DNA from: Candidatus Omnitrophota bacterium
Lineage (GTDB): Bacteria; Ratteibacteria; UBA8468; MWAK01
NCBI GenBank assembly: GCA_043797665.1
Contig: JAZDPL010000092.1
Coordinates: forward strand, 1-27,130
Length of the DNA: 27,130 nt
Reading direction: 5' to 3'
Part shown: in pieces, positions 1 to 19,245 of the stretch
How positions within the stretch are numbered: the stretch's first letter is position 1
Layout: the number at the start of each line of letters is the position of its first letter
The notes under the pieces: model-generated
What the model was told of the DNA's origin: nothing
What the model saw: only the letters and a program-made list of their open reading frames with translations
Databases searched by the model: none
Made by a program: the position numbers and the translations under genes

Positions 1-1
1 T

Positions 2-67
2 CGCACCCTGAAATACAACTGGGTCTTTGAAGATTTCGGTCAGTTTAAACTGGCGGTAAACCATTGA
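2..67 (+). CDS. Possible 3' end of a gene entering from the left (RTLKYNWVFEDFGQFKLAVNH*)
   Basis: Open frame from the window edge to TGA at 65-67; family not recognised. Confidence 0.3.
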   Translation, partial: RTLKYNWVFEDFGQFKLAVNH

Positions 68-113
68 AACACAAGGTCTTTGAGAGTAGAGAAATTTGAC
101 TGTTATCATAGGA

Positions 114-141
114 GGTTCTAACGTCGTCCCGTATGCCACCC
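114..141 (+). repeat. 28-bp att-like direct repeat, copy 1 (2 mismatches)
   Basis: GGTTCTAACGTCGTCCCGTATGCCACCC, 26/28 identical to copies 2 and 3. Confidence 0.9.
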
Positions 142-219
142 TGTGACCTTACGAATGAATATGCGAATTTTGAAGGATTTTCCCGGGATAATCTTTGGCG
201 GATGAGGATGTTTTATCTT
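142..219 (+). pseudogene. Fragment of a DUF1016/YhcG N-terminal domain gene
   Basis: Translates DLTNEYANFEGFSRDNLWRMRMFYL, matching the DL..E...GFS..NL..MR.FY motif; begins directly at the right edge of repeat copy 1. Confidence 0.7.
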
Positions 220-232
220 GGAGAGAAGTGGG

Positions 233-549
233 TTATATGTTCTCCATGAATTTTTCCGGTGTCACCTTTGCCTGTCGGAGAATACCCACCAAAGTTCCGA
301 TTGCCAATTCTTTATGTAGGGGGACAACGCATCCTACTGTTTCGGCGAGGGATACCTTCTTTAGGATTACGTGACTGCCCCGTTGTCGTATTGTTTCTAA
401 CCTGAAAGAAGCCACAGGACTTTATCTGGAGGAATTCCCATCCCAAGAAGTTTCCCGGCCAATACTTACCACTTTTGAAGTAGCTCATGTCTAAGTTAAG
501 AAGGGTCTCCGGACAAGAGATGATAGCTGCTTTGAAACGTTTAGGTTTT
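233..549. pseudogene. hicA: HicA-family mRNA interferase toxin, split by an inversion
   Basis: N-terminus MSKLRRVSGQEMIAALKRLGF on + (487-549); C-terminus TIRQRGSHVILKK...VVPLHKELAIGTLVGILRQA on - (about 395 down to 233). Confidence 0.85.
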
Positions 550-656
550 ACAACAGCTTCTTCAATTGTATAGCCTTGACTGACCGTACCTACCTCCGGA
601 CATTCGGCTACGTATAAATTTTCTTCCTTATGAACAATTGCGGTATAGAGTTCCAT
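396..656. pseudogene. hicB: HicB-family antitoxin (short form), split by the same inversion
   Basis: N-terminus MELYTAIVHKEENLYVAECPEVGTVSQGYTIEEAV on - (656-552); C-terminus NLKEATGLYLEEFP...PILTTFEVAHV* on + (399-494). Confidence 0.85.
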
Positions 657-692
657 ATTAACTCCTTTCTACTGTACATTTGTGTCACATAA

Positions 693-721
693 ATATTACC
701 ACTGAGGCAAGGCTTAGTCAA
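693..721 (-). promoter_or_regulatory. Putative sigma70 promoter of hicBA
   Basis: TTGACT-17 nt-TAATAT on the minus strand; AGGAG Shine-Dalgarno before ATG 656; near-palindrome ATTTGTGTCACATAAAT at 678-694. Confidence 0.55.
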
Positions 722-752
722 ATTGTCTGTGTCTTTCAGAATCTATTTATCA

Positions 753-997
753 TCAGGTATAACGGGAAATTTCCCGGAGCAGGATTTTTTGGAGATCGTG
801 AACAAGTTTGTGTCGGAAAAGCGGGGGCTTTGAAAAACAATCCGCAAGGCGGTTCCACTCTTAAAAAGAACCTTTTCGGAATCCGGCTCCTGGTAGAAGA
901 TGGAAAGAAAAAGGTGTTGGACATATTCTCTGGCTACGTTTATTTCGATGGTCTGATATTGTGACGCCAGTTTTTTTATTACTTCCCTGTCAAGCAT
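753..997 (-). pseudogene. AbiEii-family nucleotidyltransferase toxin with a large internal deletion
   Basis: REY.QHLFL...LFKSGTALR...SPRFS N-terminal motifs break off before the expected EDLDF; an out-of-frame C-terminal-like tail HKLVHDLQKILLREISRYT* follows at 812-753. Confidence 0.8.
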
Positions 998-1589
998 AGA
1001 TCTCCTTTATCATACGTTCCAAATTCGTGGAACGAAACAACTCCGCGTAGCAATGCATCTTTTCTTTATTGAGCGAAGAAATGTCCAAGCGGGTATTGAC
1101 GGTGTAAACTTTCCTGCCTACAAAATAAAGATAGTCCACCAGCGCTTTCTCCTTTTCTGCGATGAGTATTGTTTTTCCGCCAATCTTCTCCGGTGCGTAT
1201 TCGGTAAAAGCAGGTTTCTTTATCCGGTGATACCGAAATTCCCGCTCCAGGATTTCAAAGCGATAGGTTGGGCGGGTGGTGACGGATGTGACAACGTAGG
1301 TCATTTCAGGAATAATATGATAATGTGCAAGCGCAAAAGTGAGGGAAATGTAAGAAGGGCGGAGAAGGGCATTGGCAATTTCAAACTCGGAGGGGATACG
1401 GTCGCTTAACGCATACAAACCGCGCCGCAGCTTTGTAATAGCCCCTTTTTTTGTGTAACGGGTCAGAAAGAATTGAACCGAAATTTTGGAAACATCCAGG
1501 ATGCGTTTCAGGTCAACCGGGGTGAAAAGAGCGATCTCCGAATCTCTAATCTTCTTTTCAAACAACATCCAATTCAATATTTTAGCCAT
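990..1589 (-). CDS. AbiEi-family type IV TA antitoxin / transcriptional regulator
   Basis: wHTH with LRRGLY, PSYISL..AL..Y.IIPE, IA..EKAL.DYLY; overlaps the AbiEii start; ATG 1589 preferred over TTG 1628. Confidence 0.85.
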   Translation of the reverse strand: MAKILNWMLFEKKIRDSEIALFTPVDLKRILDVSKISVQFFLTRYTKKGAITKLRRGLYALSDRIPSEFEIANALLRPSYISLTFALAHYHIIPEMTYVVTSVTTRPTYRFEILEREFRYHRIKKPAFTEYAPEKIGGKTILIAEKEKALVDYLYFVGRKVYTVNTRLDISSLNKEKMHCYAELFRSTNLERMIKEIYA

Positions 1590-1628
1590 ATTGCTAAATA
1601 TTTCAATCCATTTTTCCAGCGCTGTCAA
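1576..1628 (-). promoter_or_regulatory. Putative abiE promoter and autoregulatory inverted repeat
   Basis: TTGACA at 1628-1623; imperfect inverted repeat AATATTTTAGC / GCTAAATATT (1576-1602) straddles the start codon. Confidence 0.4.
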
Positions 1629-1752
1629 ATTTTTTTATCCGCTTCCGCGGACTGCCTCATAAGTAATTTAGACCACAAGAATTTTTAAAATGGTATAATA
1701 TACACCTTGTAGGAATTCACCTTTTAATTATCGGAATAAGGGAGAGTACACA

Positions 1753-2685
1753 ATGGATTACGTTAAATTTGTGAAGGCGCAGGTTGAAGAGATTCGTAAG
1801 GAAGTGGGTGATGAGATTGCTATTAACGCTTTAAGTGGGGGTGTGGACAGTTCGGTAGTTACGGTGTTGGGACACCGGGCCCTGGGTAAAAAACTAAAGA
1901 CCGTCTTTATTGATAACGGCCTTATGCGCAAGGGTGAACCTGCCTGGGTTGTCAGGACTTTCGCGGGAATGAAAATCCCCGTCGAGTTGGTAGATGCCAG
2001 AGAAAAGTTTCTTGGTGCGTTGAAAAACATCACAGATCCGGAAGAAAAACGGCAGGCTATTACCGACACTTTTTATTCCAGGGTATTCGTCAACATAGTA
2101 AAGAAGACCGGTGCGAAATTCCTTTTTCACGGAACGATATTGACCGATATTGAGGAGACGGTTGCCGGTATAAAGCGCCAGCACAATATTCTTGCCCAGC
2201 TCGGGATTGACCCGGAGAAAGAATACGGATACAAAGTTATTGAACCGCTTAAGACACTTCGTAAAGACGGTGTACGGAAGGTGGCCAAGGTCTTGGGACT
2301 TGCTGAAGAGATTACCCGGCGCATTCCCTTTCCCGGACCGGCTTTGGCCACCCGCATTATCGGAGAGGTTACCGAGAAACGGCTGGAAATTGTACGTGAA
2401 GCGACGGCCATCGTTGAGGATGAGTTGGCGAAAACCGACGCATTCCAGTATCTGGCGGTTTTGCTAAGTGATTGTGCAACAGGCATTCGTAATGGTAAGA
2501 GGGAGTTCGGCCAGATTATCGTTGTACGGTGTATTGAAAGCACCGATGCCAGAAAAGCAACCGTTACACGCCTTCCCTGGAAGAAACTGGAGCGGATTTG
2601 TGAACGTATTACTGCGATTCCGGGTGTCAACCGCTGTCTCTACGACCTCACGCCAAAGCCACCCGCGACGGTTGAATATATATAG
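1753..2685 (+). CDS. guaA: GMP synthase ATP-pyrophosphatase subunit (subunit B type, no glutaminase domain)
   Basis: ALSGGVDSSV PP-loop, IEPL..L.KD.VR, PFPGPALA.RI.GEVT, YDLTPKPPATVE; extended -10 TGnTATAAT at 1691-1699. Confidence 0.92.
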   Translation: MDYVKFVKAQVEEIRKEVGDEIAINALSGGVDSSVVTVLGHRALGKKLKTVFIDNGLMRKGEPAWVVRTFAGMKIPVELVDAREKFLGALKNITDPEEKRQAITDTFYSRVFVNIVKKTGAKFLFHGTILTDIEETVAGIKRQHNILAQLGIDPEKEYGYKVIEPLKTLRKDGVRKVAKVLGLAEEITRRIPFPGPALATRIIGEVTEKRLEIVREATAIVEDELAKTDAFQYLAVLLSDCATGIRNGKREFGQIIVVRCIESTDARKATVTRLPWKKLERICERITAIPGVNRCLYDLTPKPPATVEYI

Positions 2686-2830
2686 TCTATATTGATAATC
2701 AACGGATTTCGGCAAAAATAGGGGCGGGAAAATATATGGCAGGTGTATGCCAGAATTTGCTAAAATGGGGTTTTAGTCAGGCTGGTATTGAAAAAACAGG
2801 CAATATTAAGGTTAAATTACCCAACAAGGG

Positions 2831-2858
2831 GGTTCGAACGTCGTCCCGTAAGCCACCC
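2831..2858 (+). repeat. 28-bp att-like direct repeat, copy 2
   Basis: GGTTCGAACGTCGTCCCGTAAGCCACCC, identical to copy 3. Confidence 0.95.
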
Positions 2859-2908
2859 AAATGCCAGAATAAGTAAATTACTTACATGAGACTTGCCAGT
2901 CTCCGTAC

Positions 2909-4060
2909 ATGCCAACAATGCGACAGCCGGAATATCTGATGGTGGAAACACCGCAGTGCCTAAGTGAAGCGTGCGCCATTTTGGCGAGAGCGACGACCGT
3001 CGCTCTCGACCTGGAAGCCGACACCCTGTTTCATTATGGGGAAACGGCATGTCTGGCACAATTGTCGGACGGCGCGCAAATATGGCTGGTGGATCTTCGC
3101 CAGGTGACGGACATCTCTCCCATGAAGCCGATACTCGAGAACACCGCCGTCGAGAAGGTCCTGCACGGTGCCGATTACGATATCCGGCTCCTGCGGCGCC
3201 ACTTTGGCATTAATTGCCGGCCGATCTTTGATACTGAAGTGGCGGCTCGTTTCCTCGGGATGCGCCTGTCCGGCCTGGCTGAGGTCCTGGCGAAGCGTTT
3301 CGGGGTTGTTCTCGATAAGAAGTTCCAGAAATGTGACTGGACGCGGCGACCATTGACCGCCGAAATGTGTTCCTACGCAGCCGCCGACGTCCACTGGTTG
3401 GTCCGGCTGGCGGGTCTGATGAAAGAGGATTTGGCCAGACTCGGGCGTCTGGCCTGGGTCGAAGAAGAGTGCGATATTTTGGCGTGTTCGTCGGACCGTA
3501 TCAGGGAACCCGGCCCGCTCTTTCTCTATTTCAAGGGCGCCGATCTCCTGGACCGAAGAAGTCTGGCTATACTGGAGTCTCTTCTGCAGGCGCGGGAATC
3601 ACTGGCCAAACAGCGTGATCGCCCGCCGTTCAAAGTGTTGTCTCCCGATGCGATCAGACAGATCATCCGGGAGCGGCCGGAAACGGACCGGGAACTGCTG
3701 CGGATCAATGGTTTTGGCCACAGAAGCGGGTCGTTCCGTGCCGTTGTGCTGGCAGCGGTGAGAAATGCGTTAAATCTTCCCGATGAGCGGTTGCCGGAGT
3801 ATCCGAGGGGTATCGGACGGAGACCAAGCCGCAGCCACTGGTTCCAGGCGAGAGTGCAGGGCTTGAAGGAATGGCGCGATAGTCGGTCCGCAGCCCTCGA
3901 GCTGGATGGCAGTATGGTCTGTGCCAACAGCGTGATCCAGGAACTGGCCGTGAAATGCCCGGTCACGCCGGAGGCACTGGGCCGGGTCGAACGACTTCGG
4001 AAGTGGCAGAATCGTGAGTTTGGCGCGGAAATCTGCAATATAATGTCCGGAAAAAACTAG
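2909..4060 (+). CDS. rnd: Ribonuclease D (DEDDy 3'-5' exonuclease plus HRDC domains)
   Basis: ALDLEAD, KVLHGADYD, FDTEVAA, DW..RPL....YAAAD, RE..A...DRPPFKV; visibly more GC-rich than its neighbours. Confidence 0.92.
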   Translation: MPTMRQPEYLMVETPQCLSEACAILARATTVALDLEADTLFHYGETACLAQLSDGAQIWLVDLRQVTDISPMKPILENTAVEKVLHGADYDIRLLRRHFGINCRPIFDTEVAARFLGMRLSGLAEVLAKRFGVVLDKKFQKCDWTRRPLTAEMCSYAAADVHWLVRLAGLMKEDLARLGRLAWVEEECDILACSSDRIREPGPLFLYFKGADLLDRRSLAILESLLQARESLAKQRDRPPFKVLSPDAIRQIIRERPETDRELLRINGFGHRSGSFRAVVLAAVRNALNLPDERLPEYPRGIGRRPSRSHWFQARVQGLKEWRDSRSAALELDGSMVCANSVIQELAVKCPVTPEALGRVERLRKWQNREFGAEICNIMSGKN

Positions 4061-4106
4061 ACCACTTTCCGGCTAATTAAATAGATTCTACCCCTCTTTT
4101 CTGAAT

Positions 4107-4360
4107 ATGAATATCTGGCGATTGAATGTAAGAGAGACCCAAATTGGAGAATGCATAAGGAATAAGATGTTTGCTATTGATACACGTCCAAGAAATCCCG
4201 AAATCCAAAAAGGTGACATACTTCTTTTGCAATTGGTATCTATAGATGCCGAAAGATTAGACAAGAAAAATGCGAGAATTGAATATGCTCTGATTTTCGA
4301 TCATTATGAAGAGGATTATAATGGGGCTGTGAGTCGTTATTATTGGCCGAGGGCAGGGGA
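4107..4360 (+). pseudogene. 3'-truncated ORF, possibly an EVE/PUA-like N-terminal domain
   Basis: AT-rich protein-like frame (IQKGDILLL motif) to about RYYWPRAG, after which it reads the antisense strand of the TPR gene. Confidence 0.45.
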
Positions 4361-6373
4361 AAAACGAGGATTGTTCTCTACCGCCTTCCTGAATGAAGCA
4401 ATAGCCTCCTGCCCTTTTCCAATAGATTTGTACGCAAGCCCGAGGTTATAATGCGTGACCGCGTGATTGGGATTGATTTCCAGTACCTTCCTGTACAAGG
4501 TTATAGCATCTTCTACCTTGCCGGAACTGTAGTACACGTTGGCAAGGTTATTATACGCTTCCACATAATTCGGATTGATCTCTATCGCCTTCTTGTATGA
4601 ATCTATGGCTTCCTGTTTCTTCCCGATGCTGTTATATGCAACACCAAGATTGATGTATGCCTTCGCATAGCCGGGATTAATTTCTATCGCCTTCTTGTAT
4701 GAAGTGATAGCATCCCGTGTCTGTCCAGCAGCCTTGTACGCGAGCCCGAGATTATGATGCGCTGACGCGTGCTCCGGATCGATCTCCAGTGCTTTCATGT
4801 ATGAGGCTATGGCTTTCTCCGTCCTGCCGGCACTATAGTACGCGTTGGCAAGGTTATTATGCATTTCCGCATAACCTGGATTAATCTCTATCGCTTTCTC
4901 GTACGACGCTATGGCGTCCCCCGTTTTCCCCATGTCGCGGTACACATTGCCGAGTCTGTAATGCACCCTTGCCTCTCCCGGTGATTTTTCCACCGCGTCC
5001 TTCCACAGGGTATACTCGTTCAGCCAGACCCGGTTTCTCGCTCTGGTCTCTTTGACGCAGACGATCATCAGCAGACCGACCACGGCCGCCATAACCGGAA
5101 ACGTATTACGCAGTGACAGTCGGCGAGCGATAAACATCACCGCACGCTCTAGACCAAACGCGGCGAGTCCTAAGAATCCCATTGCCGGCAAGTACATTCT
5201 GTACTCAACCATAAACTCTGCACTTCTCTGTACCAGTACATACGGAAGAAGTCCAAAAACAGACCAAAGAACCAGAAAGGACGAAACAGGCTTTTTTAAT
5301 CTCTGTTTGAAACCAACTATCATGACAGCGCCTATGCAGAGAAACGGGATCGGTGCTATCAGCGCATGAAGGACTGTTTGTGTTTTTACCACCCTCACAC
5401 AATGATCCACGCTTAAACTGGAGGAGAAAGGAACCAAAAGCCAGATATATCGCCAGAAAACCTGTGCCTCTGTCAATAGATAGGCAACATAGCTCACTCT
5501 TCCCATGATTGGGTGACGCCCGCCTTGGAACAGCATCGAGAAATATCTCTCTAGATTTACCGCAATGCAAATTACGATTGCTGCTATTGCGGCGGCTGAC
5601 ACCACCAGGGGGAAGATTCTTTTTCCCTTTGCCCATCTCCATCTGAAAATAAGAAGATAGAGGCCAATGGTCAGAACGACATAGTATATCCCGATATCCT
5701 TAGACATCCCCCCCAGCACGACACTCGCCGCAATGCCAATGACAGAAACAATCCTGCGTGTTCTTGACATTGCACTGAGAAATAGAATCGTACATATAAC
5801 GCCGGAAAGAGAAAACAGGGAGTAGAAGAGGACATGTCTTGCCTGAATATAGTTCACTGGCTCTGAGCATATGGGATGTACGGCAAAGAGGACTGCGGCC
5901 ATAAGGGGGATCTTACTCCTTGGTCGAAGATGGATATCCTGTATCAAGAGAGATAAGAACCCGTAGAGTAAGAGTGCACAGAGGATATGGAGACTGATAT
6001 TTAGATAATGCCATCTCCTTACTTCATTTGTACCGCCAAAATGGTAGTTGAGGGCAAAGGAGTAGAAGCCGACGAAACGGGACTGGTTGTTTCCCCTCCA
6101 GATACTAACAGGATTCAGGCTTCTGATAGAGGAATTCTCTACAATCGAGTGCTTGTCATCGTAGTGAAAGGAACCATCAATGCTGTTTGTGTAGGCAGTA
6201 ATACCGGTTACAATAATAAGCACCAGTGCAAGTGTATGCCATTTCCAAGACATGCCTGCATTTAACTTGCTCACTAATTCAATCTGGTCGCCGGTCTCTT
6301 TTTTATAATCTATTTGTTTTTTCTTTTCCTTCTGTCTTTCCAGGATTTTCCTTACCTTCTTTTTTTGTATCAT
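4340..6373 (-). CDS. TMTC-like multi-pass membrane glycosyltransferase-fold protein with C-terminal TPRs (3' end probably truncated)
   Basis: FHYDD..SI..N, LFAVHP..SE.V.YI..R, E.RMYLP, RN.VW..E.TLW motifs; six 34-aa TPR repeats. Confidence 0.85.
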   Translation of the reverse strand: MIQKKKVRKILERQKEKKKQIDYKKETGDQIELVSKLNAGMSWKWHTLALVLIIVTGITAYTNSIDGSFHYDDKHSIVENSSIRSLNPVSIWRGNNQSRFVGFYSFALNYHFGGTNEVRRWHYLNISLHILCALLLYGFLSLLIQDIHLRPRSKIPLMAAVLFAVHPICSEPVNYIQARHVLFYSLFSLSGVICTILFLSAMSRTRRIVSVIGIAASVVLGGMSKDIGIYYVVLTIGLYLLIFRWRWAKGKRIFPLVVSAAAIAAIVICIAVNLERYFSMLFQGGRHPIMGRVSYVAYLLTEAQVFWRYIWLLVPFSSSLSVDHCVRVVKTQTVLHALIAPIPFLCIGAVMIVGFKQRLKKPVSSFLVLWSVFGLLPYVLVQRSAEFMVEYRMYLPAMGFLGLAAFGLERAVMFIARRLSLRNTFPVMAAVVGLLMIVCVKETRARNRVWLNEYTLWKDAVEKSPGEARVHYRLGNVYRDMGKTGDAIASYEKAIEINPGYAEMHNNLANAYYSAGRTEKAIASYMKALEIDPEHASAHHNLGLAYKAAGQTRDAITSYKKAIEINPGYAKAYINLGVAYNSIGKKQEAIDSYKKAIEINPNYVEAYNNLANVYYSSGKVEDAITLYRKVLEINPNHAVTHYNLGLAYKSIGKGQEAIASFRKAVENNPRFSPALGQ

Positions 6374-6429
6374 ATTAGCGTTAAATAGTCAGATTTCTGT
6401 CAGCCCGCCAGAACTCGACACGTATTATA

Positions 6430-6458
6430 AGGATACCACCTTGTTTTGAGGTAGTCAA
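6430..6458 (-). promoter_or_regulatory. Putative sigma70 promoter of the TPR gene
   Basis: TTGACT-17 nt-TATCCT with TGn extension. Confidence 0.4.
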
Positions 6459-6661
6459 TCCGTTACCCGGATGGATAAACACATCTTTAGGACGCGGTGG
6501 GGGAGATAATTGGCTTTAGACATCTGTTCGTGAATCACCGAAGCAATCTTTTCCAACGGATTGGAAACTTTCGAAAGCAAAAAATTCCTGAACCACTTGT
6601 TGGTCAGAAAAGGATTGGCTTCAAGCAGGGTCGGTTTGTTTTCGACAACTATTCCATGACA

Positions 6662-6708
6662 TTGACAAATGTTGTAATATGTGTTATATTTTCAACAGAA
6701 AATAACAA
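6662..6708 (+). promoter_or_regulatory. sigma70 promoter with overlapping candidate DeoR operator
   Basis: TTGACA(6662)-17 nt-TATATT(6685) with TGn extension; two TGTT and two AACA motifs arranged as direct and inverted repeats across it. Confidence 0.65.
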
Positions 6709-6723
6709 TATATGGGGTGGGAA

Positions 6724-7491
6724 ATGTTAAAGAGCAACAGACAAAAAGAAATAATGAAGGTCTTGCAGACAAAAGGTTCCGTGGAAATCAGCCAACTGTG
6801 CCGTATATTTGGCGTGGTTGAAATGACCATACAACGGGATTTATCCGAGTTAATCCAAAAGGGAGGAATTATAAGAGTTCACGGAGGAGCCATACTCCCC
6901 GAAGATAATATTTTATCGGAACCGCCTTTTGACATCAGGAACAGGAAGTATCAACAGGAAAAAGAAGCTATTGCCAGAGCCGCTTTTGATATGATTGAGG
7001 ATGGACAAAAAATTCTTCTGGATTCCGGCACAACTACGTTTTCATTGGCAAAAATAATTGATAACTCAAAACGACTGATAGTAGTAACCAACGCCATAAA
7101 TATTGCCTCTGAACTGAATGTGCGCTCAAATGTTTCCGTCTTATCTCTCGGCGGAAACATGCGTAAGAATACCCTTGCCTGTGTCGGCCATTTTACCGAG
7201 TCCATGATAAGTAATTTGAAAGTCGACATTACCTTTTTGGGCGTAGGAGGGATAAGCGAAACGGGCAAACTCAGCGGCGGAAGTGTTGCGGAGGTCGGCG
7301 TTAAACAGGCAATGATTGAAGCAGGAAAACAAATTATAGTGTTGGCCGATTCCTCAAAAATCGGACGCGAAGAGTTCGTTTTAATTACAAACATAAAAAA
7401 TGTGGACTTATTGATTACCGACTCTAAAGCCCCGGAAAAAATTATCAACCGGTATAAGAAAATGGGTGTAGAAATAAAAATAGCTGATTAA
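6724..7491 (+). CDS. DeoR/GlpR-family transcriptional regulator
   Basis: HTH V.EMTI.RDL..L, RVHGGA, EKEAIA, LDSGTTT, VVTN, LADSSK; alternative start at 6712. Confidence 0.95.
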   Translation: MLKSNRQKEIMKVLQTKGSVEISQLCRIFGVVEMTIQRDLSELIQKGGIIRVHGGAILPEDNILSEPPFDIRNRKYQQEKEAIARAAFDMIEDGQKILLDSGTTTFSLAKIIDNSKRLIVVTNAINIASELNVRSNVSVLSLGGNMRKNTLACVGHFTESMISNLKVDITFLGVGGISETGKLSGGSVAEVGVKQAMIEAGKQIIVLADSSKIGREEFVLITNIKNVDLLITDSKAPEKIINRYKKMGVEIKIAD

Positions 7492-7554
7492 CGATAACTA
7501 CGCCTGGATGGCACCGTGCTCAAGATGTGAAAATATGGATAGGCCCCCCCACGA

Positions 7555-7623
7555 CAGGAGATAATCTATAGAGAAGCGGTCAGGGAAGCGGCAATAATTG
7601 GAACGGCTATAGGCGCGGCATAA
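7555..7623 (+). pseudogene. Collapsed remnant of an E1-beta subunit gene
   Basis: QEIIYREAVREA fused to AIIGTAIGAA*; 22/23 nt identity of 7567-7589 with 9780-9802. Confidence 0.7.
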
Positions 7624-7626
7624 TTC

Positions 7627-8805
7627 ATGAAGAAAGCCATACAGTTTGGCGCAGGCAATATCGGTAGGGGTTTTTTAGGACAGTTATTTAACCGGTCCGG
7701 GTATAAGGTAGTATTTATTGATGTAAATAAGGAATTGGTTTCCAATATCAACAAAAGAGGTTCTTACCCGCTGAAAATTGTCAGCAATAAAGATTGCTAT
7801 CAAGTCACGGTCGGAGATGTGAGCGCGGTTCATACGGATAATATAAAAAGAATAGCCGAAGAAATAGCCGATGTCGGAATTATAGCTACCGCAGTCGGGA
7901 AAAGATCTTTGAAATCGATTGCTCCTCTCATTGCTTCCGGAATAGAGCGGCGGATAAAACTGGGGATAGAAGAACCCTTGAATATAATCATATGCGAGAA
8001 TCTTTTTCATGGGGCAGAGACTCTAAGGGCATATATTTTAGAGAGTATGGATAAAAAACATGAAGGGTATGTTAGACGCTGCCTGGGATTGGTAGAGTCT
8101 GTCGTCAGCCGCATGGTGCCCGGCAGGCCCGAAGCGGCGGGAAATGAAGACCCCCTTCTTCTCGTGGCAGAAGAATATGCCCTTCTGCCGGTTGATAAAA
8201 ACGGGTTTGTGGGTGATGTGCCGGCGATAGACGGAATGCAGACTTGTGATAACCTGATAGCCCGCCAGGAACAGAAGATGTTTACTCACAACACCGGACA
8301 TTCATTATGTGCTTATTGGGGATATCTAAAAGGATACCAATATATTCATGAGGCGATAGGAGATAGCCAGATAAGGTCTGCAACGGTCAATGCCCTGGAG
8401 GAGTCAGGACGGGCGCTTATCAAAAAGCATACGATTGACGCTCGGGAACACCGGGGCTATGTTGAGAATTTGCTGGAACGGTTCAATAATGGCGCTTTAG
8501 GCGATACCGTATCTCGTGGGGCCAAAGACCCTATTCGTAAGCTCGGAGCAGAAGACAGATTGGTAGGAGCTGCTAATCTGGCCTTAAAATCCGGAGTTAA
8601 GCCCGATTACTTAGCCTTAGGGATTGCTGCTACTCTTCATTATGACAATCCCCGGGATGAACAGGCGCTCAGATTACTTCAAATCAAAAGAGAAGGCATT
8701 GATAAGGTGCTGTCTGAAATATGTAACCTTGACCCCCGGGAGGAACTATCTTTGCTAATCAAAGGAAAAATGGGGCAAATAAAAAATTACGCGGGAGAGC
8801 GGTGA
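7627..8805 (+). CDS. mtlD: Mannitol-1-phosphate 5-dehydrogenase family oxidoreductase
   Basis: QFGAGNIGRGFLG, IICEN, V.RMVP, K....N.GH, RF.N..L.D...R...P.RKL...DRL; exact substrate uncertain. Confidence 0.85.
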   Translation: MKKAIQFGAGNIGRGFLGQLFNRSGYKVVFIDVNKELVSNINKRGSYPLKIVSNKDCYQVTVGDVSAVHTDNIKRIAEEIADVGIIATAVGKRSLKSIAPLIASGIERRIKLGIEEPLNIIICENLFHGAETLRAYILESMDKKHEGYVRRCLGLVESVVSRMVPGRPEAAGNEDPLLLVAEEYALLPVDKNGFVGDVPAIDGMQTCDNLIARQEQKMFTHNTGHSLCAYWGYLKGYQYIHEAIGDSQIRSATVNALEESGRALIKKHTIDAREHRGYVENLLERFNNGALGDTVSRGAKDPIRKLGAEDRLVGAANLALKSGVKPDYLALGIAATLHYDNPRDEQALRLLQIKREGIDKVLSEICNLDPREELSLLIKGKMGQIKNYAGER

Positions 8806-8806
8806 C

Positions 8807-9784
8807 ATGGAATCAGAAAATCATTTACTGATAGAGTTGTTCAGGCAAATGTTGCTCATCAGACGGTTTGAGGAAAAGGTAAAAGAGCTTTATATGCAAG
8901 GTAAAATTAAAGGCATGTTACACCTTTGTATCGGGCAGGAGGCGGTGGCGGTTGGCGTAGTATCTGTCCTTCAAGTGGGTGAGTATATCGTCAGCACTCA
9001 CCGTGGGCATGGACATTTCATTGCCAAAGGGGCGGACATCAGATTAATGATGGCCGAGTTATTCGGCAAAAAGACCGGTTACTGTAAAGGAAAAGGCGGC
9101 TCCATGCACATAGCGGACATAGACCTCGGTCACCTGGGTGCCAATGGTATTGTTGGCGAGAGTCTCCCCATTGCCACCGGAGCAGCATTAGCCTTTAAGA
9201 ACATACGGCAAACCAGCCAGATAGTGGTCTGTTTTTTTGGGGATGGTGCTTTAAATATGGGCGTGTTTCATGAATCACTTAATCTGGCCGGCCTATGGAA
9301 ATTGCCGGTGGTTTACATCTGTGAGAATAATTTATACGCACTATCTACACACGTAAAAAGAGCCTGTGCCATAGAAAATGTTGCCAAAAGGGCTGAAAGT
9401 TATGGAATGCCGGGTGTGACCGTAGATGGAATGGATGTCCTGGCAGTGAGAAACGAGGCAGAGGCAGCCGTCAAACGAGCCAGGGATGGAAAAGGCCCTT
9501 CTCTGCTTATATGCCAAACTTACCGGTTCTTGGGGCATGGCAGAAACCCTGACTGCCGCCTCTATCGGACAAAGGAAGAGGAAGAAAAATGGAAAATAAC
9601 GTGTCCGATTAAAATTTTTCGAAACAGCCTCTTAAATAAAAACATACTTTCAGAAAACGACCTTGGAAACATAGAGAATAAGATAACTCAAGAGATTGAT
9701 TCAGCCGTCAAATTTGCCGAGGAGAGTCCTGATCCTGTTTCTGAAGACTTGGAGGCAGATATATATGCGCCAAATAACGTATAG
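8807..9784 (+). CDS. TPP-dependent dehydrogenase E1 alpha subunit (acetoin/pyruvate type)
   Basis: HLCIGQEA, STHRGHGH, GKGGSMH, TPP motif GDGA...NN, TYRF.GH. Confidence 0.95.
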   Translation: MESENHLLIELFRQMLLIRRFEEKVKELYMQGKIKGMLHLCIGQEAVAVGVVSVLQVGEYIVSTHRGHGHFIAKGADIRLMMAELFGKKTGYCKGKGGSMHIADIDLGHLGANGIVGESLPIATGAALAFKNIRQTSQIVVCFFGDGALNMGVFHESLNLAGLWKLPVVYICENNLYALSTHVKRACAIENVAKRAESYGMPGVTVDGMDVLAVRNEAEAAVKRARDGKGPSLLICQTYRFLGHGRNPDCRLYRTKEEEEKWKITCPIKIFRNSLLNKNILSENDLGNIENKITQEIDSAVKFAEESPDPVSEDLEADIYAPNNV

Positions 9785-10736
9785 AGAAGCGCTCAGGGAA
9801 GCCTTGCGGGAAGAGATGGAACGCGACCCGTCCGTATTTCTTATTGGTGAAGACATTGGAATTTATGGCGGAGTGTACGCAGTAACTAAGGGGTTACTTG
9901 AAGAATTTGGAGAAAAACGGGTGCTTGATACCCCTATCTCGGAAGCAGTCATTGTCGGAGCCGCCACCGGAGCGGCTGCTGTGGGAACCAGACCGGTGGC
10001 CGAGATAATGTATATAAATTTCATGACTTTTTGTATGGACCAGATTGTTAATCAAGCCGCTAAGATGAGATATATGTTCGGCGGAAAAATCAAAGTTCCC
10101 CTCGTCATTAGAACCCAGGGAGGAGCGGGAACATTCTGTGCGGCCCAGCATTCTGAGAGTTTAGAGTCCTGGTTTATACATATTCCCGGGTTGAAAGTAG
10201 TTATGCCTTCAACTCCTTACGATGCCAAAGGTTTATTAAAAAGTTCCATTAGAGACGATAATGTAGTGATTTTTATCGAGCACACCCTTCTTTATAATAC
10301 AAAAGGGGACGTGCCGGAAGATGAATATCTGATTCCCCTGGGAAGCGCAGATATAAAACGGGAAGGAAAGGATGTGACGATTATATCTTACTCGCGGATG
10401 GTTTTACTGGCTCTTGAAGCGGCAGACGAACTTGCCAGGGAAGGAATAAGCGCGGAGATAATTGACCTCAGAACCCTAAGTCCCCTGGATATTGACACGC
10501 TCATCAATTCGGTAAAGAAGACCGGACGAGTGGTTATCTGCGAGGCAGATTGCAAAACCGGGGGTATGGGCGCAGAGATATTGTCCCAGATTACCGAACG
10601 TGCGTTTGATTTCCTTGACGCACCTCCAATAAGGATAGCCGGAAAAGATACCCCCATACCTTATAGTTCTGTTTTGGAAAAAATGGCTGTCCCCGATAAA
10701 GATGATATCGTCAAGAAGATTAGAGAAATCATATAA
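9765..10736 (+). CDS. TPP-dependent dehydrogenase E1 beta subunit
   Basis: GEDIG.YGG, DTPISE, RPVAEIM, AAQHS, PSTPYDAKGLL, IDLRTLSPLD; ATG 9765 follows GGAGG. Confidence 0.95.
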   Translation: MRQITYREALREALREEMERDPSVFLIGEDIGIYGGVYAVTKGLLEEFGEKRVLDTPISEAVIVGAATGAAAVGTRPVAEIMYINFMTFCMDQIVNQAAKMRYMFGGKIKVPLVIRTQGGAGTFCAAQHSESLESWFIHIPGLKVVMPSTPYDAKGLLKSSIRDDNVVIFIEHTLLYNTKGDVPEDEYLIPLGSADIKREGKDVTIISYSRMVLLALEAADELAREGISAEIIDLRTLSPLDIDTLINSVKKTGRVVICEADCKTGGMGAEILSQITERAFDFLDAPPIRIAGKDTPIPYSSVLEKMAVPDKDDIVKKIREII

Positions 10737-10755
10737 ACCGGAGAGGAGAAAAACC

Positions 10756-12135
10756 ATGGAAAAAACGAAGATGAATTTTGTAGAAGTTGGAAAGATTGCC
10801 GGAAAAATCATTAATGAAACACTGCCTGAGATTGACGTAAACTTAGTGGTCACGCAAGAAGAGTATAAGCATCGCTGGCAAAAGATACAGGTCAAACTTA
10901 AAGAAAAAGGATATGATGTCGGTTATGCCTGCGGGAGTGAAATGGATAGAAGTGATATTGCCTGGATGGCAGGGGTATTTGACCCGATCGTCGAGAGATA
11001 CGGTATTCTCATAGGCGTTGAAGGCCCTCCCGTAATACTTGCCGGGTCGGAAGGAGGCCACGTAGTGGCGGAAGCCAAGGACCGTTCCGGCGCCGAAGTT
11101 TCACTCCTGCGCGAGTTCCAAATATCGGACGAAGATTATCGTCATACAAAATTTGATACGCTGGAGAATGTTCTGAAGAAAATGGGGGTTCCGAAAAATG
11201 GAAAAGCGGCCATTTTTGCCAGTTCCGAATTTGTTCCTTATCACCATGTAGTGATGCTGCAGGCCATATTCGGGTCCGACAACGTCTCTTTTGATCCGCT
11301 CCTTTTGCAGCTCATTAAATACGAGAAGTCGGAAAAAGAACTGGCCATCTGTCAGATGTCCAACATAGTAAGTGATGCCGCATTCCGAGCCATGCTGGCT
11401 GTGTGCGTCCCCGGTATGACGGAATTGCAAGTGGCCGGTGCCGGCGATTTTGTTATGAAAGAACTGGGGGCCGGACGGCAGGGTTTCCCCACCATCGTCA
11501 CTGCCGGGAAAAGGGGCTACACCATCATCGGGCCGGCAACAAATAACAGGATTCAAGAGGGCGATATTGTTTCCATGGGTATCAGCGGGACATTTAACGG
11601 CTACCACGGGATTATCCGACGGACTATCCGGGCGGGCAAGAATTTTTCTCCGGACCAGATGGAAGTCGTGCGGGCCGTGGAGGGACTTTATACCACTGTC
11701 ATGGATGCAACGATTGAGGCCGCAAAAACAAACGCCCCGTCCAACACCATCGACCTGAAAGGAAAAGAATACATCGCCAAGCTGAAACTAAAAGCCCTTG
11801 ACGGCTCGATAGTTACCCCCCAGGAACCGTACACTTTTATTCATAACGCCGGTTGCAGCGAAGCAAGCGAAGGATACGGCGCTATCACGCCCTATACACA
11901 AACTCCCATCGGGGAGCGGGCTACCCTGATGTGCGATGTGGCTCTCAAGGGTTTCATCAATAAAGGTGAACCTCTCTTTAACATTCTGTATGCAGTGGTT
12001 GAGGATTCCCTTTGGAAATGCAGTAAAGAAGCAGGTGTTTACAATCGGCTGCCGATCAATGTCCAGCATTTAGTGGGCAATACCGAACCGTTAGGGAACA
12101 ACATTAACCCATACCATAAATACTTCTCCTTGTAA
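10756..12135 (+). CDS. M24 (Xaa-Pro peptidase / creatinase) fold protein with atypical active site
   Basis: KSEKEL, PGMTE, FPTIV.AG, I.EGD.V, GY....RT, VED; ATG 10756 follows AGGAG. Confidence 0.8.
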   Translation: MEKTKMNFVEVGKIAGKIINETLPEIDVNLVVTQEEYKHRWQKIQVKLKEKGYDVGYACGSEMDRSDIAWMAGVFDPIVERYGILIGVEGPPVILAGSEGGHVVAEAKDRSGAEVSLLREFQISDEDYRHTKFDTLENVLKKMGVPKNGKAAIFASSEFVPYHHVVMLQAIFGSDNVSFDPLLLQLIKYEKSEKELAICQMSNIVSDAAFRAMLAVCVPGMTELQVAGAGDFVMKELGAGRQGFPTIVTAGKRGYTIIGPATNNRIQEGDIVSMGISGTFNGYHGIIRRTIRAGKNFSPDQMEVVRAVEGLYTTVMDATIEAAKTNAPSNTIDLKGKEYIAKLKLKALDGSIVTPQEPYTFIHNAGCSEASEGYGAITPYTQTPIGERATLMCDVALKGFINKGEPLFNILYAVVEDSLWKCSKEAGVYNRLPINVQHLVGNTEPLGNNINPYHKYFSL

Positions 12136-12179
12136 AGGATGTGTTGCGGACTCAGGAGGCACTCTAAACTCAAGAAACA

Positions 12180-12207
12180 GGTTCGAACGTCGTCCCGTAA
12201 GCCACCC
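12180..12207 (+). repeat. 28-bp att-like direct repeat, copy 3; apparent right border of the accessory region
   Basis: Identical to copy 2. Confidence 0.95.
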
Positions 12208-12297
12208 GGTCACAGTAGTTCCAAAAAGAGGCGGGTAGAATTCCTATAAGGCTTTATTATTTTGGGATTATGGAATATAATATGTACGGAGGAAGAT

Positions 12298-12663
12298 ATG
12301 GAGAAGAAAATTCTTGTGGTTGATGACGAAGAAGATATCAGAACGCTTTTGACAACATCGTTTGAATCGCAGGGATACCAGATAATTAGTGCCGCTGACG
12401 GTACCCAGGGCTGGGAGATGCTCAAAAACCATAAGCCGGATTTACTGATTACGGATGTTAATATGCCCGGGATAAACGGAATAGAACTTCTAAAGAAAGT
12501 ACGTGAAGATTCTGACCTGAAAGATATGCCGGTAATTATGTTGACCGGTAAATCGGCGGATGAGGAAATTCTGTCCGGACTCTCCCAGGGAGCTGACCAC
12601 TACATTACCAAGCCGTTTACCATCAAAACCGTCCTGAATACGGTTAAGATGGTGTTTGGGTGA
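12298..12663 (+). CDS. Single-domain CheY-like response regulator
   Basis: ILVVDDE, DLLITDVNMPG, PVIMLT, GAD.YITKPF; GGAGG Shine-Dalgarno. Confidence 0.95.
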   Translation: MEKKILVVDDEEDIRTLLTTSFESQGYQIISAADGTQGWEMLKNHKPDLLITDVNMPGINGIELLKKVREDSDLKDMPVIMLTGKSADEEILSGLSQGADHYITKPFTIKTVLNTVKMVFG

Positions 12664-12674
12664 GAAAAAAAGAT

Positions 12675-13775
12675 TCAGGCGATAATTCCCCCCTCTTCAC
12701 TGAGAAAGATTCCTTTGAATTTCATCCCCAGACTATCAGGATTATCAGCATATTCAAGGGCTACTTCCTTGGTGATGAAATTTTTATTTACCAGCTCAAA
12801 AAGTGAGGTTTCAAAATCTAACATCCCTTCTTTTTTTGCGGATTTAATAGCTCTGATTATCTTTTCGTACTGTCCTTCGGAAATCAGCTTTGAGATTATC
12901 GGGCTTGAAAGTAAAATTTCAGAGGCAGGAACCAGGGGTATCTCTTCCTGGCACGATGGAAGTAACATCTGGCAGACCACGGCTTTCAAATGTAAGCTCA
13001 GAGATTTTCTTATTTCCGGATGTCTGTCCTGAGGGAAGAAATTAAGAATCCGAATTATGGTCTGAGCGGCATTAGAACTGTGAAGTGTCCCGAAAACCAG
13101 GTGTCCTGTTTCGGCGCCAGTCAGGGCAAATTCAACCGTTTCCGGGTCTCGCATTTCCCCGATTAGAATAACATCCGGGTCCTCCCGCATAGCGTATTTC
13201 AATGCATCCCGAAACGATTTAACATCTATGCCGACTTCCCTTTGGTTGATGATTGATTTTTCGTCCTGGTAAAGAAACTCGATGGGGTCCTCAATACATA
13301 AGATATGGCAATTCTTCGTTTTATTAATATGGTTCACCATTGCCGCCAATGTGGTAGATTTCCCGCTGCCGGTAGCTCCGGTAACGAGAACCAATCCGTT
13401 GGTAAAGTTTAATATTTCTTTGATGGATGGCGGAAGATTCAGACTTTCAAAATCAGGGGTGAAAAAGGGGATTCTTCTGCCAACAAGGGCCAGCGTTCCC
13501 CGCTGGACGAAAATATTTATGCGGAATCTCCCTATCCGGGGAATTCCGATGGCGGTGTCGAAGTTCCCCCCTTCTTCCAGGATGGCAATTTCTTTTTCGG
13601 AAAGAATCCCGTAAATCATCTTTTTCAGCCGTTCCGGACTGATTTTGGGAAGTTTGAGTCTTACGATTTCGCTTTTAATTCTGAATGCAGGAGTAGTATC
13701 AGCCTTCAGATGGACATCGGATGCACCTTTGGTGTGCATCATTTTCAAGAGGTCAATCAATGAAAAGTTTTCCAT
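12675..13775 (-). CDS. PilT/PilU-family type IV pilus retraction ATPase
   Basis: GASDVHL, GATGSGKST, IEDPIE, QREVG, REDPDVILIGEMRD, ETGHLV.GTLH; lacks the PilT AIRNLIRE motif. Confidence 0.93.
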   Translation of the reverse strand: MENFSLIDLLKMMHTKGASDVHLKADTTPAFRIKSEIVRLKLPKISPERLKKMIYGILSEKEIAILEEGGNFDTAIGIPRIGRFRINIFVQRGTLALVGRRIPFFTPDFESLNLPPSIKEILNFTNGLVLVTGATGSGKSTTLAAMVNHINKTKNCHILCIEDPIEFLYQDEKSIINQREVGIDVKSFRDALKYAMREDPDVILIGEMRDPETVEFALTGAETGHLVFGTLHSSNAAQTIIRILNFFPQDRHPEIRKSLSLHLKAVVCQMLLPSCQEEIPLVPASEILLSSPIISKLISEGQYEKIIRAIKSAKKEGMLDFETSLFELVNKNFITKEVALEYADNPDSLGMKFKGIFLSEEGGIIA

Positions 13776-13777
13776 TT

Positions 13778-14680
13778 TTACTCCTTCCCTGGGTTGGGAA
13801 AGCTATTTAGTTTTTTAACATTATATACCGAGGTATCGCAGATTGTAAAATCCGAAGTTAAAGAGACCATCCAGAAAGGGTCGATCGGTTTCCCTTGCAA
13901 ATAGATTCCAAAATGAAGGTGTGGCTCAGTCGACCAGCCGGTATTACCCACTTCGGCGATGACTTCGTTTTGGTCGACCATATCCCCGACCTTTTTAAAG
14001 ATTCGGGACAGGTGAAAGTAACAACTGACCACTCCTTGTCCGTGATCGATAATCAGGAGGTTACCGTATATATTAAAATTGTGCTCACTCAGAATGACCT
14101 TTCCCGAATTTGTTGCCTGAACCGGCGTACCTTCCGGAGCAGTGAGGTCCACTCCCCAGTGATAGTAGGTGTAAGTTCCCAGGTTACGTTTGACACCAAA
14201 TTCGGTACTGACTTCACTCCTGAGTGGGAGAAGAAACGGCTGATTCCAATACTTTTGGGGCTCCCGGTTATTGATGGCTGCAAGGACTTTTTTCTGTTGT
14301 TCAGGAATGGAAGGTTGTGCTTTTCTCATCCTCCGGCTGGTTTTACCCAGGGATACCGTCTTTATCTTCCTTTGGGCCACTTTTACTAAAAAGGAGTGTT
14401 TTTTTTCCGGACCGGCAGGAGATATCTTCTCCACGGTTAGTTCCCTCTCTCCAGCGGTTTCGATGCCCAGGGGCAGAAAGATTTCCCATACACCTTCCGA
14501 GACCGGAAAGGGTTTATATCTCTGATGTTCAAAGCGGATCCGGTAGTCGCCTTCCGAATCTCCTTTAAACCGGAGTATGAGACCTTCTCCGCCGGTCAGG
14601 TTTTCCGGCAATGTTTGGAAGGTAAATGCCTGCAGTTGAGATACAATTAGCGATGTTACTAACCACTTCCTTCTACTCAT
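13778..14680 (-). CDS. M23-family metallopeptidase
   Basis: HWGVD (HxxxD), YGN..IIDHG.G....Y.HL, GNTG.ST.PHLHF. Confidence 0.92.
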   Translation of the reverse strand: MSRRKWLVTSLIVSQLQAFTFQTLPENLTGGEGLILRFKGDSEGDYRIRFEHQRYKPFPVSEGVWEIFLPLGIETAGERELTVEKISPAGPEKKHSFLVKVAQRKIKTVSLGKTSRRMRKAQPSIPEQQKKVLAAINNREPQKYWNQPFLLPLRSEVSTEFGVKRNLGTYTYYHWGVDLTAPEGTPVQATNSGKVILSEHNFNIYGNLLIIDHGQGVVSCYFHLSRIFKKVGDMVDQNEVIAEVGNTGWSTEPHLHFGIYLQGKPIDPFWMVSLTSDFTICDTSVYNVKKLNSFPNPGKE

Positions 14681-16649: not shown

Positions 16650-16667
16650 CCACCCGGCGGGTTTTTA

Positions 16668-16717
16668 GTAGGGGTCGGATTCATCCGACCCGCGGGTTCG
16701 ATAAATCGAACCCCTAC
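16668..16717. repeat. GTAG-type REP doublet (two hairpins)
   Basis: GTAGGGGTCGGATTCATCCGACCCGCGGGTTCGATAAATCGAACCCCTAC. Confidence 0.85.
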
Positions 16718-18224: not shown

Positions 18225-18318
18225 CTGACGCTAATGTGTTACGGTGTTGACACTGGCGATTGTCTTAGGTTGACTTTTGTGATAAACTATAGAAGATGAT
18301 AAAAATGATCGGTTTGAC

Positions 18319-18368
18319 GTAGGGGTCGCATTCATGCGACCCGCGGGCTTGATAAATCAAGCCCCTAC
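18319..18368. repeat. GTAG-type REP doublet, second copy
   Basis: GTAGGGGTCGCATTCATGCGACCCGCGGGCTTGATAAATCAAGCCCCTAC; compensatory changes relative to the 16668 copy. Confidence 0.85.
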
Positions 18369-19220: not shown

Positions 19221-19245
19221 GTAGGGGTCGGATTCATCCGACCCG
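19221..19245 (+). repeat. Single GTAG REP unit
   Basis: GTAGGGGTCGGATTCATCCGACCCG, identical to the left half of the 16668 copy. Confidence 0.85.

Follow-up and report, generated by a model that had tools for sequence, protein, structure and literature searches.

Three 28-bp sites and the features of the window

The window analysed here is a stretch of 27,130 nucleotides from Candidatus Omnitrophota that makes up the whole of contig C62 of its source genome (G000, 86% complete, 93 contigs). Three 28-bp sites, all on the + strand, separate blocks of cargo genes in its left part (Table 1). Very probably, these sites are attR-type scars of islands that a large serine integrase targeted to tRNA-His, that accreted in tandem and that are now integrase-less. 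Labels denote genomes (G, with G000 being the window's own), contigs (C), loci (L), contigs of read runs (X) and proteins (P), and what is said of cited papers refers to excerpts of these papers.

Copies 2 and 3 are exact repeats and copy 1 differs at two positions, as the initial annotation had reported; the gaps of 46, 145 and 44 nt that it had given after the + strand stops at 67, 2685 and 12135 are likewise accurate. In 100 shuffles, no copy of the 28-mer arose by chance. Identity had been described as ending sharply on both sides. The right boundary is indeed sharp, but the left one is so only among the three window copies; the arm upstream of copy 2 is common to other loci over ~55-170 bp at 79-90% identity. 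Nor is the site confined to this locus: a profile yields 13 hits (E≤0.01) on eight contigs of the genome, and a search allowing up to six mismatches finds eight site matches. Every contig with several copies carries them co-oriented (three on C62, three on C52, two on C64 and, behind tRNA-Asn, 11 on C61). The site pattern is present in only 3 of the 41 relatives searched.

The idea of a tandem array holds with respect to the block junctions, the lack of a recombinase in the window and the precise gain and loss of blocks, but not with respect to an undescribed, integron-like site. The best match to the integron integrase model TIGR02249 in this 86%-complete genome reaches 85.5 bits against a cut-off of 265, and folds of four regions on both strands show no attC-like hairpin (z of -0.5 to +1.7 relative to shuffles). 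The spacings of 2717 and 9349 rule out a CRISPR-like array. The earlier statement that no transposase is present does not hold: the + strand frame with its stop at 67 encodes the C-terminal end of an IS110-family transposase. It is doubtful that backbone genes begin right after copy 3, as synteny with L032 ends at 13849 and is followed by DNA like that of contig C44. ARAGORN and Rfam gave no match over the window, which contains no tmRNA.

Table 1 Features of the window, in order of position.
Feature	Coordinates	Strand	Remarks
Right end of IS110-family (IS1111-like) insertion sequence (IS)	1..112	+	Last 21 transposase codons, stop at 65-67
IS subterminal inverted repeat	about 94-107		Shared core AG at 113-114
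Copy 1	114-141	+	Putative P half-site 114-138, proposed crossover CC 139-140; upstream arm replaced by IS
hicB-hicA-type toxin-antitoxin pair	233..656	-	Scrambled by inversion of 392-552; other orientation in L028, X1-X3
abiEi antitoxin (990-1628) and truncated abiEii (743-997)	743..1628	-	PF13338
GMP synthase synthetase subunit (guaA)	1753..2685	+	PF00958; second copy in genome
Distal P arm of copy 2	2777..2830	-	Putative orphaned integrase C-terminal coding tail, read from 2860 to a stop near 2778
Copy 2	2831-2858	+	Putative P half-site 2831-2855, putative zinc-domain (ZD) motif 2832-2840, proposed crossover CC 2856-2857
rnd (ribonuclease D-like)	2909..4060	+	PF01612 and PF00570; foreign-looking cargo
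TPR-repeat protein	4340..6373	-	Domain search
Catabolic operon: DeoR regulator, mannitol-1-P dehydrogenase-like, E1 alpha, E1 beta, M24-like	6712..12135	+	Pfam/NCBIfam
Copy 3	12180-12207	+	Putative P half-site; distal arm reduced to ~5 bp
Response regulator and pilT-type ATPase	12262..13775		Flanks the array on its right in the window

A tRNA-like site in the tail of a serine integrase gene

The site profile matched the 3' end of tRNA-His(GUG) on C25. The last 15 nt of the site are identical to tRNA-His at 14 positions, and the other 38 of the 39 scored tRNAs reach at most 10 (46 tRNAs were found, seven of them without the anchor motif). Relative to tRNA-His, the T-loop motif of the site is separated from the stem by five additional bases. 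Other tRNAs show the same arrangement. Behind tRNA-Asn on C61 lie 11 profile hits with two tail types, and three hits follow tRNA-Gln on C44, both groups with a 5-bp insertion relative to their own tRNA. These arrays extend over C61:53985-78715, where the two integrase-tail types alternate, and C44:13700-24084; another tail-like site lies on C90 near 13354.

The clearest tRNA-His array is found on contig C31 of G006, in which seven same-strand sites occur within 36 kb downstream of tRNA-His. Between these sites lie genes of the toxin-antitoxin, Fic, GNAT, phosphate-transport and other types, none of the intervals contains an intact integrase, and rnd comes after the last site. Co-oriented scars downstream of the target RNA gene, by which tandem islands can be recognised, are thus present on G006:C31, C61 and C44. 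In G008, rnd is directly preceded by an intact tRNA-His, and in G005 by a displaced tRNA-His 3' half; in both, the flank behind tRNA-His is orthologous to the right flank of copy 2. By this orthology, copy 2 occupies the position that a tRNA-His end holds in these relatives, and through the rnd flank the window contig itself would lie behind tRNA-His.

Two further observations concern the DNA behind tRNA-His. The same high-GC membrane-protein gene lies behind tRNA-His (C25:1-637) and behind a site (C64:1-164), with 98.8% identity over 164 bp. Furthermore, an element of ~130 bp directly follows tRNA-His (G000:C25:640-750; L060; L036:1-70), terminates in G006 and L036 with a true 18-nt copy of the tRNA 3' end, and has a similar counterpart after tRNA-Ser in L043.

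The site is also part of an integrase reading frame. In the metagenomic locus L033, a large serine recombinase (P0001, PF13408) encoded on the opposite strand reads through the site and ends ~27 codons further on. Copy 2 with its arm matches this tail at 21 of 27 amino acids (E=2.8e-6). The closest full-length homologues (P0002-P0004, 65-68% identity) carry the resolvase, recombinase and zinc-ribbon domains PF00239, PF07508 and PF13408 and end in WGG-stop, which corresponds to the antisense coding of tRNA-His. The nearest solved structure is that of the A118 integrase. Likewise, the integrase that this genome encodes on C75 runs into tRNA-Gln; it is one of two serine recombinases in the genome, the other being on C37. 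At E≤1e-20, P0001 has matches in 4 of 65 relatives; viral contigs yielded neither a site match nor an integrase relative. A cognate enzyme as expected from the A118 model is thus present in related DNA, and was found neither in the window nor in its 86%-complete genome.

We examined the register of these endings in 121 proteins, namely P0001 and the best 120 of 1153 hits. The tRNA-antisense motif lies at +7 in 43 of them and an xRT motif at +9 in 31, while 42 have a stop within six residues and five end otherwise; within the first 20 residues, neither strict motif occurs at any other offset. Both motifs derive from one DNA word, and the +7 and +9 registers correspond to a fixed shift of 5 nt. 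The integrase frame reads (V/I)RT in 24 of 29 translated sites, although these were picked by DNA likeness and are not independent. A profile built from 30 integrase tails, excluding P0001, recovers known sites as 13 of its top 14 genome hits, with weak scores. A second subfamily is represented at C63 (G000:C63:2332-2400; L061), where a tRNA-His 3' half is followed by a C-terminal integrase remnant resembling the integrase at tRNA-His in G036 and G033.

The geometry of the site corresponds to that of a serine-integrase attachment site. For the Listeria A118/LI integrase, a 25-bp P arm is described, with a 9-bp ZD motif at positions 16-24 in attP and 11-19 in attB (PMC3783163). If the crossover is placed at tRNA positions 72-73, the 28-mer resolves into 25 + 2 + 1 bp, and the positions of the shared motif are precisely 16-24 and 11-19. 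This 5-bp shift, together with an arm of ~25 bp, is found between the sites and tRNA-His, -Asn and -Gln and in 74 of the 121 proteins, with none off register. Conservation ends at tRNA position 73-74, position 74 being C in 23 and T in 3 of 26 sites.

At the level of sequence, the tRNA-His identity, the 5-bp shift, the integrase tail, the G006 array and the empty alleles described below are directly visible; the crossover bond (to within one base), the order of events and the way in which integrase-less blocks move are what we infer from them. We postulate that each 28-mer consists of the 25-bp element-side (P) half of an attachment site and the crossover. Islands would have inserted at the very 3' end of tRNA-His, with the crossover near tRNA positions 72-73 (±1). 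The P arm would mimic the tRNA 3' end with its T-loop motif 5 bp further outward, a resemblance that would arise from the recognition of both half-sites, that of the tRNA and that of the P arm, by a single enzyme. The integrase gene would span attP; integration would keep the tRNA intact, with the integrase body converging on it and ending in WGG-stop, and the last ~27 codons of the integrase would stay behind at the far end of the island, where they would form the conserved arm. Islands would become stacked through repeated insertion at the regenerated tRNA (31 of the 121 integrases abut such an arm), and loss of the integrase genes would leave co-oriented scars between cargo blocks. In the reading that we prefer, recombination at the scars may then add, remove or exchange blocks, or an intact island next to them may take them along. 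The insertion just outside copy 1 would have come later, from an IS110-family element with a guide matching the P arm.

Several observations speak against this interpretation. The window has neither tRNA-His nor an integrase, tRNA-His being located on C25, 750 bp from the contig end, and the 86%-complete genome yielded no integrase of this type that targets tRNA-His. The copies on C17, C52, C33 and C56 cannot be assigned to a single array; on C17 the copy is a neighbour of tRNA-Gly, with the two on opposite strands, and in G006 one degenerate copy lies upstream of tRNA-His. An integrase remnant is missing behind the majority of scars, with profile hits confined to L033, C75 and G006. On their own, the window copies score weakly against the tail profile (iE 0.36 and 22). 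Coding constraint on site variants is not significant, with 19 of 37 changes being synonymous or conservative (P=0.16; 21 distinct site sequences, after three with indels or duplicates and four B-type sites had been dropped). No mirror ZD motif is seen in 26 right flanks, which give background scores, nor at 16-24 in the P' arm of L033, the only candidate P' arm (four near-duplicate flanks and one decayed site were dropped). No complete element with both ends was recovered, and no complete His element, nor did any one element supply the whole series of attP, attB, attL and attR. Excised circles, which the initial annotation had suggested looking for, were not seen: neither the 12207-2859 nor the 2858-142 joint occurs in four of eight runs, whose data are thin (low-coverage contigs of relatives, at most 0.10 of words per run) and are not evidence of absence.

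With regard to integrase remnants, tblastn and profile searches of the window found none beyond the tails, and a weak remnant is present at C9 (E=0.014). Deletion of the integrase at internal junctions by recombination with a pseudo-attB was considered and rejected, as the 26 right flanks contain no motif.

Cargo blocks, alternative alleles and competing explanations

The cargo assignments proposed earlier are borne out by Pfam/NCBIfam for AbiEi, the GMP synthase C-domain, rnd, the TPR protein and the DeoR-mtlD-E1a-E1b-M24 series, but hicB and hicA have no Pfam hit in the window. The hicB/hicA call rests on HicA (PF07927) in L028, whose locus is 96-97% identical to the window. The abiE region is 93% identical in nucleotides to an intact pair that precedes a site in G006:C31. 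The guaA gene has a paralogue on C10 at 43% and a 99% nucleotide match in L029, there behind a different site. Compared with its surroundings (G+C content 0.45-0.47), rnd has a G+C content of 0.585. Across genera, rnd is 85-92% identical in nucleotides, and rnd and abiEi together span 85-93%, compared to 66-80% for neighbouring genes such as the pilT, M23 and DEAD genes. We regard the cargo as mobile because the cross-genus identity of rnd and abiEi exceeds that of their neighbours and guaA is a second copy.

Alternative alleles were found in relatives. In L029 and L032, a copy-2-type arm is joined to 12208, and 2859-12207 is precisely absent. Contigs of runs X1 and X3, two of the four examined, likewise lack this segment and possibly derive from the same population as L029 and L032. 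The strain comparison that the initial annotation had called for thus reveals the clean gain or loss of a block, and the empty alleles expected of tandem islands exist. Block orders vary as well: Fic is followed by hicAB in L028, the IS by hicAB-abiE-guaA and then rnd in the window, and abiE by GNAT, ATP-grasp, Fic and rnd in G006, while in L036 rnd stands alone between two tRNA-like ends. In X6, the joint 2812-113 (depth 2.1, with 17 other letters) is taken to be an IS-free allele and not a circle.

Among the side features of the window is another dispersed repeat, which is intergenic, lies upstream of the arm of copy 2 (2690-2776) and has matches on C71, C52, C15 and C56; L029 has 67 extra bases at 2691. 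X1-X3 carry a 38-bp insertion at window position 12294, just upstream of the response regulator. Intergenic GTAG-tagged REP-like double hairpins lie at 16660-16717, 18311-18368 and 19221-19245.

The variable block orders could also suggest an active cassette system in which a serine integrase acting in trans excises and reinserts integrase-less blocks at half-sites, which is the initial idea with an enzyme named. The same blocks in differing orders between sites, the identity of copies 2 and 3 over exactly the half-site and core, and a cross-genus identity of 92-93% for rnd and abiEi would all fit. We nevertheless consider it unlikely: both block ends are P-type left halves with unrelated right flanks lacking the motif, a pairing that serine integrases are not reported to recombine in the excerpts of PMC3783163. 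The circle joints were not seen in the low-coverage contigs of relatives, and the cargo is visibly decaying.

It is very unlikely that islands of tyrosine integrases left the sites behind as ordinary displaced fragments of tRNA 3' ends. The identity to the tRNA-His 3' end agrees with it, and true displaced fragments do exist at C63, at G005:C113 and behind the 130-bp mini-element in G006 and L036, yet the 5-bp insertion and internal mismatches set the 28-mer apart from the tRNA, six central bases differ in tRNA-Asn-type sites, and a serine integrase gene runs through the site. Six tyrosine-recombinase hits include none on C25, and none was called in G006:C31:38000-97000; neither C25 nor C62 has a PF00589 hit, and the fragment is not identical to the tRNA. 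The family-wide +7/+9 register largely refutes this explanation. We give hardly any credence to the view that the site is the end of a dispersed mobile element without tRNA targeting, such as an IS91/ISCR-like origin or a miniature repeat. It would account for one sharp end, variable right flanks and copies on eight contigs, but the copies are co-oriented within every multi-copy contig, follow three different tRNA genes of matching 3' sequence and encode integrase tails, and no such transposase lies beside any site examined. We therefore retain the interpretation as integrase-less scars of tRNA-His-targeted serine-integrase islands.

The IS110-family element and comparison with known systems

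The IS end next to copy 1 is 90% identical in nucleotides to three copies in G003, with 20 of 21 amino acids identical to the G003 element, and 95% identical in amino acids by tblastn to L073:3612-4637, which scores over the cut-off for PF01548, PF02371 and NF033542. A DEDD transposase and a subterminal inverted repeat, as in IS1111-type elements, are thus present here, the window retaining the last 21 codons only. Contig C9 starts with the identical 141 nt of IS end and site. All three IS junctions in the genome (left end on C63, right ends on C62 and C9) occur at one and the same AG core, immediately beyond the 25-bp arm, and C33 carries a 9-nt left-end scar at the same point. L028 represents the IS-free allele, with an intact arm and the same right flank as copy 1. 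In the non-coding left end on C63, a 12-nt slot complements the target exactly; this copy has lost the second guide by deletion. The 11-nt target word occurs five times in the genome, four times in sites and once in the C63 slot. Left ends from five other genomes come after the ribosome-binding-site-like GGAG in 13 of 13 cases, and the slot in those relatives, where parsed (four copies), is A+T-rich and different from that of C63. The slot order fits the IS1111-type seekRNAs of PMC11187229. The long non-coding region lies upstream of the transposase gene and not downstream as is typical of the IS1111 type, and exceptions to the downstream placement are noted in that paper. Apparently, an IS110-family element has been re-aimed at the docking site of an integrase, as suggested by the slot of one internally deleted copy.

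Across the phylum, IS110-family elements insert after GGAG ribosome-binding-site-like sequences (L073, L074, L075, L081-L094). Both contigs starting with the IS end and a site encode a minus-strand TPR protein of ~700 amino acids nearby (window 4340-6373; G000:C9:301-2427); the N-terminal parts of the two proteins are unrelated at E≤1e-20.

A broader scheme would see here a serine-integrase analogue of integrons behind several tRNA genes. Orphan P half-sites would serve as reusable junctions, integrase-less blocks would be excised, reordered and passed between genera, and the integrase tail would be restored at tandem junctions; the IS110 guide RNA, naturally reprogrammed from ribosome-binding sites to half-sites, would parasitise the array as the IS1111-attC group parasitises integrons. 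We regard this scheme as speculative and rather improbable.

Among known systems, the Dehalococcoides ssrA islands likewise show direct repeats arranged in tandem downstream of the gene for a structural RNA, a reverse-strand serine integrase overlapping att and many islands without integrase (PMC3146451). Their integrase DsiB, of ~540 amino acids, is encoded on the reverse strand, overlaps attL with its 3' end and lacks a stop of its own, and 15 ssrA islands are described without an integration module. They target the tmRNA gene ssrA, whereas the best match here is tRNA-His, along with tRNA-Asn and -Gln. The sites share with those of the A118/LI integrase (PMC3783163) the 25-bp P arm and the 9-bp motif 5 bp further out in attP, and the integrase domains are homologous. 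In contrast to that phage system, the B half here would be the T-arm and acceptor stem of a tRNA, the integrase gene would span attP, and no mirror motif was found in the right half.

Tyrosine-integrase tDNA islands and CIMEs (PMC4383910, PMC5704250; accretion and CIMEs are defined in the latter) resemble the present arrays in tRNA 3'-end insertion, tandem arrangement and integrase-less decay that keeps the att sites. They differ in enzyme class, and the scar here would be a shifted mimic and not a displaced piece of the tRNA. PMC4383910 (2015) states that no serine recombinase is known to have tRNA genes as its target; this confinement of tRNA targeting to tyrosine integrases would be contradicted by a family of serine integrases directed at the 3' ends of tRNAs. 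Our literature search found no description of tRNA-targeting serine integrases (supplements were outside this search, and the TIGER/Islander databases could list such islands); the main text of bioRxiv 2021.11.05.467528 does not contain the word 'tRNA', and the excerpts of PMC12884075 do not address such targeting. Scars of the shifted-mimic type would tend to escape island finders that rely on tRNA fragments, and the integrases would offer a conserved target that is not disrupted. A defined mechanism would thus take the place of the proposed new cassette system.

Integron gene-cassette arrays, too, have co-oriented sites that separate exchangeable cargo including toxin-antitoxin pairs. Unlike integrons, the arrays described here have no IntI and no attC hairpin, and their blocks comprise several genes on both strands. 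The IS copy resembles the IS1111-attC group and other seekRNA-guided IS1111/IS110 elements (PMC11187229) in its DEDD transposase, its subterminal inverted repeats and a non-coding region that has the top-strand complement ahead of the bottom-strand match, as well as in targeting the recombination site of another element. It differs from the elements described there in that the target would be the P arm of a serine integrase, the non-coding region lies upstream of the transposase and its relatives sit at ribosome-binding-site-like sequences. The IS110-family copy is thus a candidate for the natural retargeting of a guide RNA to the att site of another element.

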